64,000 nucleotides of DNA. Origin: Promethearchaeota archaeon (GTDB lineage Archaea; Asgardarchaeota; Lokiarchaeia; Sigyniarchaeales; SOKP01). A model generated the notes under the pieces. The model did not search any database. It worked only from the letters and a program-made list of their open reading frames with translations, and was not told the origin of the DNA. Below, in pieces: positions 21,111 through 35,800 of the stretch (positions are counted from its first letter, which is position 1; each line of letters starts with the position of its first letter). Location of the stretch: positions 10,701 to 74,700 of the forward strand of contig JBHLNT010000005.1 in the NCBI GenBank assembly GCA_048941265.1. The letters are read 5' to 3'. Position numbers and translations under genes: made by a program.

Positions 21111-22469
21111 ATGAAAATGGAACACAATTTTATACATCCAATAGAGACCCGTTATCGTACAGAAATCGCAAAATTATTTACTGAAGAAAAAAAATTGCAG
21201 AATTGGATGTTAGTAGAATCTGTATTAGCTAAGGTTCATGCCGAATTAGGCAATATACCAAAAGAGGCTGCTAAGGAAATAGAGACGGCTAGAAAAAAAG
21301 TAAAATTGGAAAGAGTAAAACAAATTGATAACGAGATCCATCATGATCTAATGGCTATGGTTAAAGCTTTGGCAGAGCAATGTAAGGGAGATGCTGGTAA
21401 CTATATTCATTTAGGAGCAACTAGCTATGATATTGAAGATACCGCTATAGCATTACAACTGAAAGAAGCATTACATTTTATAAAGGATTCTCTATTGGAA
21501 TTATTAAAAGTATTAATTAGATTAATGGAAGAGAATAAAAAGCTTGTGTGCATAGCACGAACTCATGGTCAGCATGCAATTCCAACTACATATGGAATGA
21601 GATTTGGGGTTTGGGCTTATGAAATAGATAGATATTTAGAGAGAATATCTGAAACGCTAAACCGGATTTCATTCGGAAAAATGTCTGGAGCTGTTGGTAC
21701 CATGGCAAGTTTTGGTGAGAAAGGAATTCAAATTCAGGAGGCGGTTATGAAAAAACTAGGTTTAAATCCCGTCTTAATTGCAAACCAAATACTTCAGAGA
21801 GATCGTCATGCTGAGGTAATTCTCTTAACATCGATGATAGGACAGACCTTAGCGAAAATAGCTACAGAACAGAGAATCTTGCAACGTAATGAAATTGGAG
21901 AAATGTTTGAGCCTTTTAAGAAGAGTCAAGTAGGAAGCTCCACTATGCCACATAAAAGAAATCCCCATAAATCTGAGCGAATTTGTAGTTTAGCACGAGT
22001 GATAAAATCAAATGCGATAGTGGCCCTTGATAATATGGTGTTAGAAGATGAGAGAGATTTAACCAACTCAGCATCCGAACGAGTAATTTTTGCCGAAAAC
22101 TTCATATTTCTCGATTTTATCATAAACCAACTCACACAAATTTTCCAAGGAATAGAATTTAATGAAGCAAAAATCGAATCGAATCTTAATCTTACGAAAG
22201 GAGCGGCCTTGACCGAGAAAATAATGGTTGAATTGGTAAAGAAAGGAATTGGAAGACAGGAAGGGCATGAAATCTTAAGACAGGCTGCTATTCAGGCTCG
22301 AAATGAGGATATCAATATGAAAGATATCTTAGTTAACCATGATAAGATAAAAGGCAAATTCACAAAAGAAGAATTAGATGAGATTTTAAATCCTCATAGT
22401 TATATCGGAAAGGCAGTTGAACAGGTAGAAAATTTAACAAAAATTCTAAAAAACAAATATAAAATATAA
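21111..22469 (+). CDS. purB: Adenylosuccinate lyase
   Basis: H.GATSYD, RTHGQHA, GSSTMPHKRNP. Confidence 0.97.
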   Translation: MKMEHNFIHPIETRYRTEIAKLFTEEKKLQNWMLVESVLAKVHAELGNIPKEAAKEIETARKKVKLERVKQIDNEIHHDLMAMVKALAEQCKGDAGNYIHLGATSYDIEDTAIALQLKEALHFIKDSLLELLKVLIRLMEENKKLVCIARTHGQHAIPTTYGMRFGVWAYEIDRYLERISETLNRISFGKMSGAVGTMASFGEKGIQIQEAVMKKLGLNPVLIANQILQRDRHAEVILLTSMIGQTLAKIATEQRILQRNEIGEMFEPFKKSQVGSSTMPHKRNPHKSERICSLARVIKSNAIVALDNMVLEDERDLTNSASERVIFAENFIFLDFIINQLTQIFQGIEFNEAKIESNLNLTKGAALTEKIMVELVKKGIGRQEGHEILRQAAIQARNEDINMKDILVNHDKIKGKFTKEELDEILNPHSYIGKAVEQVENLTKILKNKYKI

Positions 22470-32787: not shown

Positions 32788-33825
32788 ATGAAAGCAGCTT
32801 TTATAAATGAACATGGTGGTTTGGAAAAAATTCAAATAGGGGAAGTGGAGGTTCCTGAAGTCGGTCCTAATGATGTACTTATTGAAACCAAATTTGGAGC
32901 ATTAAACCATTTAGATCTTTTTGTTATAAGGGGAATGCCGGGATTAACGTTATCTATGCCTCATGTGATCGGAGCGGATGGTAGTGGAATTATAAAAGAA
33001 GTGGGATCAGAAGTATCTACAGTTTCTAAAGGCGATAAAATTACTTTAAATCCTGGACTTAGCTGTGGAAAATGTAAAATGTGCCTTTCAGGACAACAAG
33101 TGCTATGTAAACAGTTTTCTATACTAGGGGAAGCTAACTGGGGTACTTTCGCTCGATACATTAAAATACCTGAAATAAATGTCTTAAAGATCCCTAAGGA
33201 TTATCCTTTTGATAAAGCTGCCGCGGCTCCTTTAACCTTTCTAACTGCTTGGAGGATGTTAACAACTCAAGCGAAAATCAAACATGATGAGTTTGTATTT
33301 ATTCATGGGGCAGGAGGGGGTGTATCTTCTGCTGCTATACAAATTGCTAAATATTTTGGAGCAAAGGTCATAGCAACAACTAGTAGCCCAGAAAAAATTG
33401 AAAAAGCAAAAGATTTGGGAGCAGATCATGTAATTAATTATAAAGAAACGAAAGATTATACAAAATATGTATTTACTGAATTAACTGATAGGCAAGGAAT
33501 AGATATTGTCATCGATAATGTTGGTCAAGCAACATTTCAGACGAGTATTCAGCTGTTAAGGCCGGGAGGGAGATTAATTACTTGTGGTGTAACTTCAGGT
33601 CCATTTACAAAAATCAATGTGACTAATATTTTCTGGAAACATTTAGAAATTAAGGGATCTACGATGGCAAATCAAGGAGATTTTCGGGAAGTAATGGAAT
33701 TAGTTTTAAAGGGGAGATTGAATCCAATTATCGATAAAGTATACCCTCTTGAAAAAGTGAGAGAAGCGGAGCAATATTTAAGTGAAGGAAACCAATTTGG
33801 GAAAGTCTTAATAGATATTTCCTAA
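32788..33825 (+). CDS. Zinc-binding medium-chain dehydrogenase/quinone oxidoreductase
   Basis: NHLD, G.DGSG, CGKCKMC...C, GAGGGV. Confidence 0.92.
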   Translation: MKAAFINEHGGLEKIQIGEVEVPEVGPNDVLIETKFGALNHLDLFVIRGMPGLTLSMPHVIGADGSGIIKEVGSEVSTVSKGDKITLNPGLSCGKCKMCLSGQQVLCKQFSILGEANWGTFARYIKIPEINVLKIPKDYPFDKAAAAPLTFLTAWRMLTTQAKIKHDEFVFIHGAGGGVSSAAIQIAKYFGAKVIATTSSPEKIEKAKDLGADHVINYKETKDYTKYVFTELTDRQGIDIVIDNVGQATFQTSIQLLRPGGRLITCGVTSGPFTKINVTNIFWKHLEIKGSTMANQGDFREVMELVLKGRLNPIIDKVYPLEKVREAEQYLSEGNQFGKVLIDIS

Positions 33826-33830
33826 TTTTT

Positions 33831-34496
33831 TTAGATTATAGATTGATAGAATTTAAAAATTTCCTCAGCAGCTTGGACATCGTACCCCCAATAAAAATGA
33901 TCAGCACCTTCTATGATTTTAAATTTCTTAGGGTTGTGATAAAATTCAAAATGGTCTTGAAATTTACTAAAACTAGCAACATCATCTCGATCTCCTTGTA
34001 TAAATAATTTAGGTTTATCTGATTGAGATAAGTTTTTATATTTTGTGCCCATAAAATCCCAAGGAAATGAAATGGAAGCATATCCAATGATTTTTTCGGA
34101 GTGATTTACTGCAGAACATCCTATAGCTGCTCCATATGAATATCCACAGAGTAAGATTTTCTCAATTTGTTTATTGTTGATCAAAAAATCGATGCAAGCT
34201 TTTACATCGCTTAATTCACCTCTTCCACTAGAATGCGAACCAGTGGATCTTCCAACGGCTCTAAAATTGAATCGTAAGCAAGAAATGTCATTACTCATAA
34301 ATTTAATAAAGACCGCAGACACTACATTGTTATGCATATTCCCCCCAAATTCCTCTAAATCGAGAGAATCTCAATTTATTTGAGGATGGGGGTGGCATAT
34401 AAGAACTGCGGAAGATTTATTTGAGCTTGATTCGTAATATTCTGCTTCCAGTTGATTATTATTATTAGGTATGAAAAAATTCTCAGTATTTCCCAT
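33831..34496 (-). CDS. Alpha/beta hydrolase (211 aa after removal of putative intron 34350-34379)
   Basis: ATG at 34496 gives MGNTENFF...LEAEY...VLICHPHPQ|FGGNMHNNVV...RFNFRAVGRS...GYSYG...GDRD...ADHF. The ORF track sees only the part after the insert. Confidence 0.88.
34350..34379 (-). other. Putative 30-nt BHB-type mRNA intron
   Basis: CCTC-AAA-[TAAATTGAGA TTC TCTCGATTTA]-GAGG-AAT; contains in-frame TGA; excision at canonical BHB sites restores CAA TTT. Confidence 0.8.
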
Positions 34497-34545
34497 AATA
34501 TTAATTAAGTATTGAAATTATAAAAATTATATAAAAGAGAAATCG

Positions 34546-35406
34546 ATGATTATGAGCTACAATAAAATCGTTATTGAGAAAAAATTGCGCGATTTTTTAG
34601 AAGAAGATTGTAATTTCATCGATGTCAGCACGATTAATATCCCCGAAGATGCAGAAGTTTCAGCAAAAATTATTGCTAAAAGCAGCGGTTTTATTTCTGG
34701 GCTTGAGGAATTAAAAATTTTATTTGATATGTTGAACGTCTCAACAAAATTCTTAAAAAAAGATGGAAAAAAGGTTAAAAAAGGAGAAATTGTAGTGGAA
34801 TTAAAAGGTAGTGCCATTAATATCCTATTAGGAGAAAGAGTGGGGCTAAATCTCATTACACATATGAGTGCCATTACAACTACTACTAGGAAATTTGTTA
34901 AGATTATTGATGAATCAGGCAAAAAAGTCAAAATAGCATGCACACGAAAAACTCTGCCTGGACTTCGAATTTTCGAAAAAAAGGCAGTAACTTTAGGCGG
35001 TGGTGATCCCCATAGATTTTCTTTAGATGATATGATTTTATTAAAAGATACCCATTTAAGGTATTATAAAGGAGATGTAGGAGAACTCCTTAACCATGTA
35101 AAAGAAACTGCGAGCTTTTCAAAAAAAATTGAAATTGAAGTTGAAAAACCTGACGATGCGTTAGTGGCAGCACAAAATGGCGCAGACATTATTATGCTTG
35201 ATAATATGACTCCCGATCAGGTTGAAGATGTAATGAAATTATTAAAAGAGCAGAATTTAAGGGAAAATATTATAATAGAAATTTCAGGGGGAATTAATGA
35301 AGATAATATAGTTGATTATCTGATTTCTTCGCCTGATATCATTAGTACAAGTGAATTAACCCAATTTCCTTCAGAAAAGTTGGATTTATCATTGCGATTC
35401 GATTAA
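34546..35406 (+). CDS. nadC: Nicotinate-nucleotide pyrophosphorylase (quinolinate PRTase)
   Basis: TRKTLPG, HR..LDD, KD.H, EIEVE, IMLDN, SGGI. Confidence 0.96.
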   Translation: MIMSYNKIVIEKKLRDFLEEDCNFIDVSTINIPEDAEVSAKIIAKSSGFISGLEELKILFDMLNVSTKFLKKDGKKVKKGEIVVELKGSAINILLGERVGLNLITHMSAITTTTRKFVKIIDESGKKVKIACTRKTLPGLRIFEKKAVTLGGGDPHRFSLDDMILLKDTHLRYYKGDVGELLNHVKETASFSKKIEIEVEKPDDALVAAQNGADIIMLDNMTPDQVEDVMKLLKEQNLRENIIIEISGGINEDNIVDYLISSPDIISTSELTQFPSEKLDLSLRFD

Positions 35407-35407
35407 A

Positions 35408-35800
35408 TTAATCAATAACGATCTCGTGAATTGAACTAATTACTTCTTTAATTTTAGATAAAGAATTTTTTAAATCTTTAATTAGACCAAATTCTCCTAC
35501 AGCTAAGATGAGTTCAATTTTTTTATCAACAATACGCCAATCAGTTATAGTCTTTATAATTTGTTTGTATTGAGAATAAATTTCAGCGATTTCATCAATT
35601 ATGACTTCTTTGAATGGATAAACCAGACTTATGGTCATAATTTTATAACCCTCTAAATTATCAAATTTCTCTTGATCTTCAATAAAATTTACTATTGCTC
35701 CTCTTAAGGCTTCGCTTTTTGAATTGAATCCGCTAACATTTCGCACCTTTTCAAATCGCTCTAATAAATCATCACTTATTTGTAGTGATATAATGGGCAT
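35408..35800 (-). CDS. CopG/NikR-like ribbon-helix-helix regulator
   Basis: IISLQI.DDLL...SKSEALR RHH domain plus ACT-like C-terminal domain; NikR His ligands absent. Confidence 0.8.
   Translation of the reverse strand: MPIISLQISDDLLERFEKVRNVSGFNSKSEALRGAIVNFIEDQEKFDNLEGYKIMTISLVYPFKEVIIDEIAEIYSQYKQIIKTITDWRIVDKKIELILAVGEFGLIKDLKNSLSKIKEVISSIHEIVID

Follow-up and report, generated by a model that had tools for sequence, protein, structure and literature searches.

A probable bulge-helix-bulge mRNA intron in an alpha/beta hydrolase gene of an Asgard archaeon, with similar inserts in the gene for ribosomal protein uL11

Watanabe et al. are said to have described, in 2002, an intron of the bulge-helix-bulge (BHB) type in the cbf5 pre-mRNA of Crenarchaeota. 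Here we describe an insert of 30 nucleotides (nt) in an alpha/beta hydrolase gene of a Promethearchaeota archaeon, which we regard, with a probability of roughly 85%, as a BHB intron spliced at the mRNA level by the tRNA splicing endonuclease EndA and the ligase RtcB. The gene is situated in a stretch of 64,000 nt (assembly GCA_048941265.1, contig JBHLNT010000005.1, positions 10,701 to 74,700 of the forward strand), which is called the window in the following and whose numbering is used for the coordinates. Similar inserts are present in a second gene of this genome and of its relatives, which encodes the ribosomal protein uL11, and these Asgard archaea very probably splice some of their mRNAs with the tRNA machinery. 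The intron treated by Yokobori et al. (2009, PMC2738675) in the cbf5 pre-mRNA of Crenarchaeota resembles these inserts, as far as the accessible part of that paper goes: it is short, situated in the coding region, gained and lost among relatives, and recognized by its BHB shape by the tRNA splicing endonuclease, a hetero-oligomeric EndA, as we presume for the inserts too. In contrast to cbf5, the hosts are here an alpha/beta hydrolase and uL11 of Asgard archaea (Promethearchaeota), with cbf5 itself uninterrupted in 59 of 59 relatives with a match; moreover, there are several sites in one gene, up to two introns in one gene and unrelated introns only 1 nt apart, all known from DNA.

BHB introns in archaeal tRNAs and rRNAs have the same geometry, predicted cut positions and enzymes (EndA and RtcB), but here the host is an mRNA, the exon helices consist of Pro/Gly or Gly-Pro codons and a reading frame would be restored. 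In the splicing of HAC1/XBP1, the endonuclease IRE1 acts on twin stem-loops in a stress-regulated manner, with an RtcB-type ligase in animals. This splicing is likewise non-spliceosomal, relies on a structure-recognizing endonuclease in a coding region and on RtcB-type ligation in animals, and changes the protein; it differs from the present case, in which EndA would act on a BHB and nothing shows regulation. An mRNA site of EndA in Haloferax volcanii is reportedly not an intron within a coding region that restores an open reading frame (ORF). The EndA-dependent processing of this mRNA is treated in PMC7714728, according to the available part of which EndA acts there on a BHB outside tRNA and rRNA, as proposed here. 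Similarly, the accessible parts of PMC8718801 and PMC5829648 report that RtcB acts in XBP1 splicing and that pre-mRNA is among the RNAs bearing BHB motifs, respectively. The tRNA genes of other Asgard lineages are very rich in introns, and the accessible part of the corresponding paper does not mention coding genes (PMC11291895). The literature within our scope, to which most subscription journals and supplements do not belong, does not mention BHB introns in protein-coding genes of Asgard archaea, and crenarchaeal cbf5 is the sole BHB intron described there inside an archaeal coding region. The kind of intron is known from cbf5; new are the Asgard lineage, the two hosts, the multiple sites, the presence of two introns per gene and of unrelated introns 1 nt apart.

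The minus-strand sequence around the insert is exactly as given in the preliminary description of this DNA, which had claimed a 30-nt segment with an in-frame TGA that splits a family motif and folds into several helices, and the coordinates are correct as well (Table 1). The insert follows codon 39 and separates HPHPQ from FGG in a motif of the alpha/beta hydrolase. When the 30 nt are removed in silico, 39 and 172 codons are joined to an ORF of 211 amino acids (aa), whose predicted junction peptide after splicing spans CHPHPQFGGNMH. The motifs GYSYG, DRDD and ADH, i.e. the nucleophile elbow GxSxG and the candidate Asp and His, are all carried by exon 2, with the triad residues assigned by eye. 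Three Pfam profiles score above their curated cut-offs (given in brackets): Abhydrolase_11 with 36.2 bits (27), Hydrolase_4 with 33.7 bits (27) and Abhydrolase_1 with 30.6 bits (25.8). The intact hydrolase with Ser/Asp/His motifs postulated earlier is thus recovered. In an NCBIfam profile search of the hydrolase all matches stayed far below cut-off. An ORF listing of the locus gives two pieces instead, one of 41 codons and one of 168 codons, the latter beginning at an internal ATG (34337-34335). This ATG lies 12 codons past the TGA. With an unspliced mRNA ending after 41 codons and an ATG nearby, unspliced transcripts could yield a truncated product of 168 aa.

Table 1. Features of the interrupted genes. 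Positions refer to the window, except for those of uL11.
Feature	Position	Strand	Remarks
Alpha/beta hydrolase gene	34496..33831	-	
Exon 1	34380..34496	-	39 codons, ATG 34496-34494 to CAA 34382-34380, ends with LICHPHPQ
Predicted type A BHB intron, 30 nt	34350..34379	-	in-frame TGA 34373-34371; predicted cuts 34380/34379 and 34350/34349
Exon 2	33831..34349	-	172 codons, TTT 34349-34347 (FGGNMHNN...) to stop 33833-33831
5' exon strand of BHB	34382..34392	-	outer CCCCCA 34392-34387, unpaired U 34386, central CCUC 34385-34382; His-Pro-His-Pro codons
5' bulge AAA	34379..34381	-	cut predicted after second base
Inner hairpin of intron	34356..34378	-	10 base pairs (34378-34369/34365-34356), one G-U; loop UUC 34368-34366
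Intron strand GAGG of central helix, 4 base pairs	34352..34355	-	pairs with CCUC 34385-34382
3' bulge AAU	34349..34351	-	cut predicted after second base
3' exon strand	34342..34348	-	unpaired U 34348, outer UGGGGG 34347-34342; Phe-Gly-Gly codons
uL11 gene of the same genome	contig C196, about 21213-21738 (locus L068:811-1338)	-	outside the window
uL11 site 0	after VTGG		inserts of 28 or 36 nt
uL11 site 1	between GPAV and GP		inserts of 30 or 28 nt
uL11 site 2	between GGPPI and GP		inserts of 36 or 35 nt
uL11 site 3	between GIN and IK		inserts of 31 or 28 nt

A first line of evidence comes from the orthologues, which were collected from 61 genomes (that of the window, called G000, and 60 relatives) and from a species-representative collection. 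This resulted in 64 loci, from which 10 duplicates and L031, a locus without the HPHP motif at the expected place, were subtracted to obtain 53 distinct orthologues. The nearest records with a name bear the titles Promethearchaeia or Promethearchaeota archaeon, some of them Hod-, Hermod- or Odinarchaeota, which places the organism among the Asgard archaea; the best one encodes a protein with 87% identity. An insert at the same site is carried by 10 of the 53 orthologues. The remaining 43 are free of it and show an uninterrupted HPHP-x-[FYML]-GG, which is exactly the junction predicted by the BHB cuts, and the motif HPHPxxGG is kept in 53 of 54 loci. The preliminary description had named such an alignment for presence or absence of the insert as a check, and a translated loop of 10 residues in orthologues as an outcome that would speak against an intron; no such loop exists, as in-frame stops occur in all 10 carriers and the insert-free genes lack the residues. 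All three stop codons (TGA, TAA and TAG) are represented, and two type A inserts contain two stops each. Three types of insert can be distinguished: type A with 30 nt (n = 3; L003, which is the gene of the window, L004 and L005), type B with 33 nt (n = 5; L007, L020, L048, L056 and L058) and type B' with 30 nt (n = 2; L040 and L046). Types B and B' have common ends, while type A is unrelated to them in sequence. Apart from the insert, the genes of all 10 carriers are in order, with an open exon 1 beginning with ATG (36-40 codons), an open exon 2 (172-173 codons) and no other stop or frameshift.

In a quick maximum likelihood tree of 52 hydrolase proteins (L065, which is cut by a contig end, was excluded), the carriers are spread over four or more places. 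A clade with a support of 97 unites the three type A genes with the insert-free L006, and the type B carrier L007 is sister to it; type B is also found in a distant clade, and B' is sister to two insert-free genes. Such a scattered distribution points to repeated gain, precise loss, or both.

The second line of evidence is the fold. RNAfold predicts −27.3 kcal/mol for a 66-nt stretch around the insert (z = −4.25); of 200 sequences with shuffled dinucleotides, not one was as stable. The insert of the window has the complete arrangement termed hBHBh', i.e. 3-nt bulges on opposite strands, a helix of 4 base pairs (bp) between them and two flanking helices, of which the outer one (34392-34387/34347-34342) forms 6 of 7 pairs with a U.U mismatch (34386/34348) beside the bulge. 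As canonical geometry we took the 4-bp helix, the 3-nt bulges and a cut after the second base of each bulge. For every carrier, all cut pairs of 12-60 nt that restore the motif were listed and then scored for this geometry. The gene of the window offers five motif-restoring cut pairs, of which just one combines a central helix of 4/4 with an inner helix of 10 bp and an outer helix of 6/7 pairs. Across the 10 carriers there are 5 to 8 such pairs each, and in 8 of the 10 exactly one has a 4/4 central helix between 3-nt bulges. L004 and L005 each have two pairs with an equal score of 3/4, of which only the BHB register has in addition the 10-bp inner helix; the remaining registers reach at most 3/4 in the central helix and have a short inner helix. 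The types B and B' use the register UCCU/GGGA with the bulges CAA (or GAA) and AAA, and compared to type A their 5' cut is shifted upstream by one base. We are hence dealing with two unrelated introns 1 nt apart, which use the same exon helix of Pro/Gly codons.

Compensatory changes in the helices, for which the preliminary description had suggested to look, were seen in the alignments of both groups. In types B and B' (7 sequences, 19 pairs), 91.6% of the cells are paired, whereas sliding the partner by 1-3 columns lowers this share to 31-71%. Changes on both sides are seen in three pairs, one of them a synonymous pair of His and Gly third positions in the exon helix. None of 500 shuffles reached the paired share and 9 of 500 reached the covariation score. 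In type A (3 sequences), 95% of the cells are paired as opposed to 33-62% when slid, and the inner helix is paired to 100% despite one compensatory and three one-sided changes.

A second interrupted gene became evident when G000 was scanned for BHB inserts that rescue broken ORFs, a search already proposed with the original observation. Two candidates among the short, stable ones listed are convincing by eye, the hydrolase and uL11; the ranking by energy was only an aid for picking the candidates that were inspected, and introns of about 37-79 nt were left out. G000 has a single uL11 match, in which the Pfam domains Ribosomal_L11_N (50.1 bits; cut-off 32.9) and Ribosomal_L11 (72.5 bits; cut-off 21.4) are recognized, and ORF calling returns just a C-terminal fragment of 119 aa. 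GPAV and GPTG are separated by a 30-nt insert containing TAA, which is a perfect hBHBh' with a 6-bp outer helix, the central helix AGCU/AGUU, the bulges GUA and AAA and a 9-bp hairpin (−22.4 kcal/mol, z = −4.62). Splicing of this insert would create the junction GU|AGGU and a protein reading GPAVGPTG at this place. The ORF downstream is, judged by eye, presumably uL1.

Among the 58 genomes with a uL11 match (loci of the relatives: L069-L098 and L114), the gene is interrupted in 12 firm cases and one probable case, all of them in the family to which the genome of the window belongs. The inserts are distributed over four sites (Table 1), and G005 and G002 have two inserts each. Unlike those of the hydrolase, the uL11 inserts are not confined to multiples of three. 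At sites 1-3 there are 2-3 cut pairs that restore the protein, one of which is the BHB register; its central helix is 4/4 in 8 of 9 instances and 3/4 in the ninth. Site 0 has a weak outer helix, and there 1 of 15 pairs combines a central helix of 4/4 with an inner helix of 3-9 pairs. The central helix at site 1 covaries between exon and intron (A-U, G-C and G-U), and the outer helices are formed by self-complementary pairs of Gly-Pro codons. It must be mentioned that the pattern used for the cut pairs was too strict for 9 loci, which were judged by a full-length match without stops or by hand. Of these, L091 begins with GTG and its BHB at site 0 was read by hand, L098 was analysed separately, and L077 starts at a contig edge. 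Stops that were initially flagged in uL11 of G056, G039 and G041 lie outside the coding region, and these genes are intact. The control genes were uninterrupted in all genomes with a match, i.e. cbf5 in 59 and uS12 in 56.

The enzymes for such a reaction are encoded in G000. There are two matches to PF01974 (tRNA_int_endo) above cut-off, on contigs C258 and C323, in ORFs of 201 and 198 aa; by eye, one of them has the Tyr/His/Lys pattern of what we take to be the catalytic EndA subunit and the other does not. RtcB is represented as well, on contig C70 (PF01139, 8.8e-171), and the tRNA splicing machinery that was supposed for this lineage is thus present with two EndA paralogues and RtcB. According to the accessible part of PMC5829648, Asgard archaea possess an (alpha-beta)2 EndA with an L1 loop, which is tied to a broad substrate range. 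Aragorn, the one tool applied, detected at least 12 tRNA genes in G000 with introns in 9 of the 12 detected, which suggests that most of its tRNA genes are disrupted in ways that Aragorn cannot model.

Taken together, these features can be arranged into a mechanism. In the hydrolase transcript, the outer helix would arise from pairing between His-Pro codons in exon 1 and Gly codons in exon 2, CCUC would form the central helix with GAGG of the intron, and the intron's own 10-bp hairpin would serve as inner helix, by which two opposite 3-nt bulges are presented. A heteromeric EndA made of the two paralogues would cut after the second base of each bulge, and RtcB would ligate the exons to CAA-UUU, with the released 30-mer probably being circularized. 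The 211-aa enzyme with HPHPQFGG would then be encoded by the spliced mRNA alone, as the unspliced one stops after 41 codons, and expression would depend on splicing. Likewise, uL11 would be made only from spliced mRNA.

We considered four other explanations, which even together appear improbable. The gene of the window could be a pseudogene, killed by a small stop-bearing insertion, with the hairpin as the scar or terminal repeat left by a small mobile element. The in-frame TGA and the two fragments that gene callers would give fit this idea, as does the lack of an RNA run covering the locus. However, the 10 carriers come from several clades and keep both exons open with a ratio of nonsynonymous to synonymous substitutions (dN/dS) of about 0.1. 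Between carriers, dN/dS is 0.06-0.17 in exon 2 and 0.10-0.49 in exon 1 for pairs within a type with small dS, where only few sites contribute, while distant exon 1 pairs reach up to 0.72 or are saturated; between the type A carriers the values are 0.10-0.25 (exon 1) and 0.09-0.12 (exon 2). For comparison, pairs of insert-free genes show 0.12-0.35 in exon 2 and 0.16-0.60 in exon 1. Hence, there is no decay of the carrier genes, and constraint still acts on exon 1. A dead gene also does not explain why three different insert sequences within 1 nt of one site each form a BHB. Finally, the single-copy gene for uL11 is interrupted in the same manner in 12-13 of 58 relatives and cannot be dead in all of them, so that we judge a pseudogene to be very unlikely. 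An artefact of assembly or binning would be conceivable in view of the fragmented G000 assembly (5.0 Mb, 361 contigs, 91% complete). DNA contigs of two sequencing runs span positions 33700-34700 (1001 nt) including the insert, with no difference in X1, possibly the source run, and a single one in X2, another sample of the same study, at position 34456 outside the insert. X3, a run of another study, contributed a contig for 34123-34367, which is free of differences and extends into the insert. None of the DNA contigs from these three runs skips it, and homologous inserts are found in the assemblies of other genomes. The suspicion of an assembly artefact, which had been raised along with the original observation, can practically be dismissed.

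Alternatively, the insert could be kept in the RNA and be overcome during translation, either by read-through or recoding of the stop or by ribosomes that hop across the hairpin, as is the case in gene 60 of phage T4. Known bypass elements resemble a stable, stop-containing hairpin of this sort. It also speaks for this possibility that the three insert types of the hydrolase are all multiples of three. On the other hand, TGA, TAA and TAG all occur, sometimes two per insert, so that no single recoding rule fits. Read-through would produce 10 residues that are wholly absent in the insert-free orthologues, and for hopping the take-off and landing codons do not correspond (CAA as opposed to GAA before UUU). 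Moreover, a frameshift is caused by the uL11 inserts with lengths of 28, 31 and 35 nt; hence, neither read-through nor a translated loop explains them. We therefore attach very little weight to this explanation. It is similarly hard to believe that exon 2 alone is expressed from the ATG at 34337, with the hairpin serving in regulation or like a terminator and the 41-codon ORF as a leader, despite the 168-aa ORF just past the insert. Such a truncated protein would be without its first strands and without HPHPxxGG, a motif which nearly all loci keep, exon 1 is under purifying selection in the carriers, and exon 1 and exon 2 sequences build the outer helix together. In the case of uL11, the first ATG past the insert is situated deep in the gene, and most of the N-terminal domain would be lost.

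The interpretation as a BHB intron spliced by EndA and RtcB has its own weak points, however, and several observations count against it. The lengths of the hydrolase inserts (30, 33 and 30 nt) are all divisible by three, which splicing does not require. The minimum free energy structure contains an extra U-A pair and prefers a central helix of 5 bp with the bulges AAA and AUU, from which 31 nt would be removed. In the canonical register (CCUC/GAGG) the same helix is paired alternatively with 4 bp, for which this U-A pair has to be opened; the fold given in the preliminary description thus stands with regard to this register and the in-frame removal of 30 nt, but it is not the most stable structure. 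In the two type A relatives L004 and L005 the central helix has one mismatch (3/4), and covariation in type A alone is not significant, with 155 of 500 shuffles reaching it in a set of only 3 sequences. Furthermore, the scans of the entire G000 revealed no excess of the 3-nt-bulge geometry over decoys. The strict scan for hBHBh' elements rescuing broken ORFs returned 497 hits with 3-nt bulges, while decoys with bulges of 1, 5 and 6 nt gave 477, 449 and 444, respectively, and a relaxed scan for short introns returned 764 compared to 751, 783, 798 and 735 with decoy geometries. This indicates that such introns are few, and the scan proves nothing on its own nor permits an estimate of their total number. 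Among the sequencing runs searched for 33700-34700, no RNA run covers the locus, and splicing, a circular intron and the junction peptide are thus predictions.

The ORFs flanking the hydrolase gene at 34546-35406 (+), 35408-35800 (-) and 32788-33825 (+) are intact and presumably encode, judged by eye, a nicotinate-nucleotide pyrophosphorylase-like protein, a small regulator of the ribbon-helix-helix type and a zinc-type oxidoreductase, respectively. When all 458 ORFs with a length of 90 aa or more in the loci collected here were compared with these loci by tblastn, the search revealed no frame-shifting splits in neighbouring genes beyond uL11, although in-frame inserts would escape such a search. 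In an Rfam search the insert matched no family, and two weak chance matches elsewhere stayed below the gathering score. By eye, several unrelated introns share a TCGA-like or TCG core, located in the 3' arm or close to the tip of the hairpin (34364-34359 in the window; L069, L070, L084 and L091), which may be due to chance.

A wider picture can be sketched, which we offer as a rather doubtful speculation. One Asgard family may harbour dynamic micro-introns of 28-36 nt of the EndA type in coding genes, which would have been repeatedly inserted, perhaps by reverse splicing, at places where flanking Pro/Gly or Gly-Pro codons can pair, and gained and lost within genera. The essential ribosomal protein uL11 and some enzymes might then depend on EndA and RtcB, which would amount to a splicing-gated control comparable to HAC1/XBP1.

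The device described here is found in the archaeal group that is closest to eukaryotes and in at least two unrelated genes, one of which is the sole uL11 gene of its genome. uL11 is a standard marker in phylogenetic analyses and in estimates of genome completeness. If confirmed in RNA, such introns would account for marker genes that appear broken or truncated in Asgard annotations. A possible regulatory link between RNA repair or ligation and translation would also come into view. Moreover, these genes would represent a testable natural system for the origin and movement of coding introns without a spliceosome, and these Asgard archaea would regularly employ their tRNA machinery to splice mRNAs when expressing genes.

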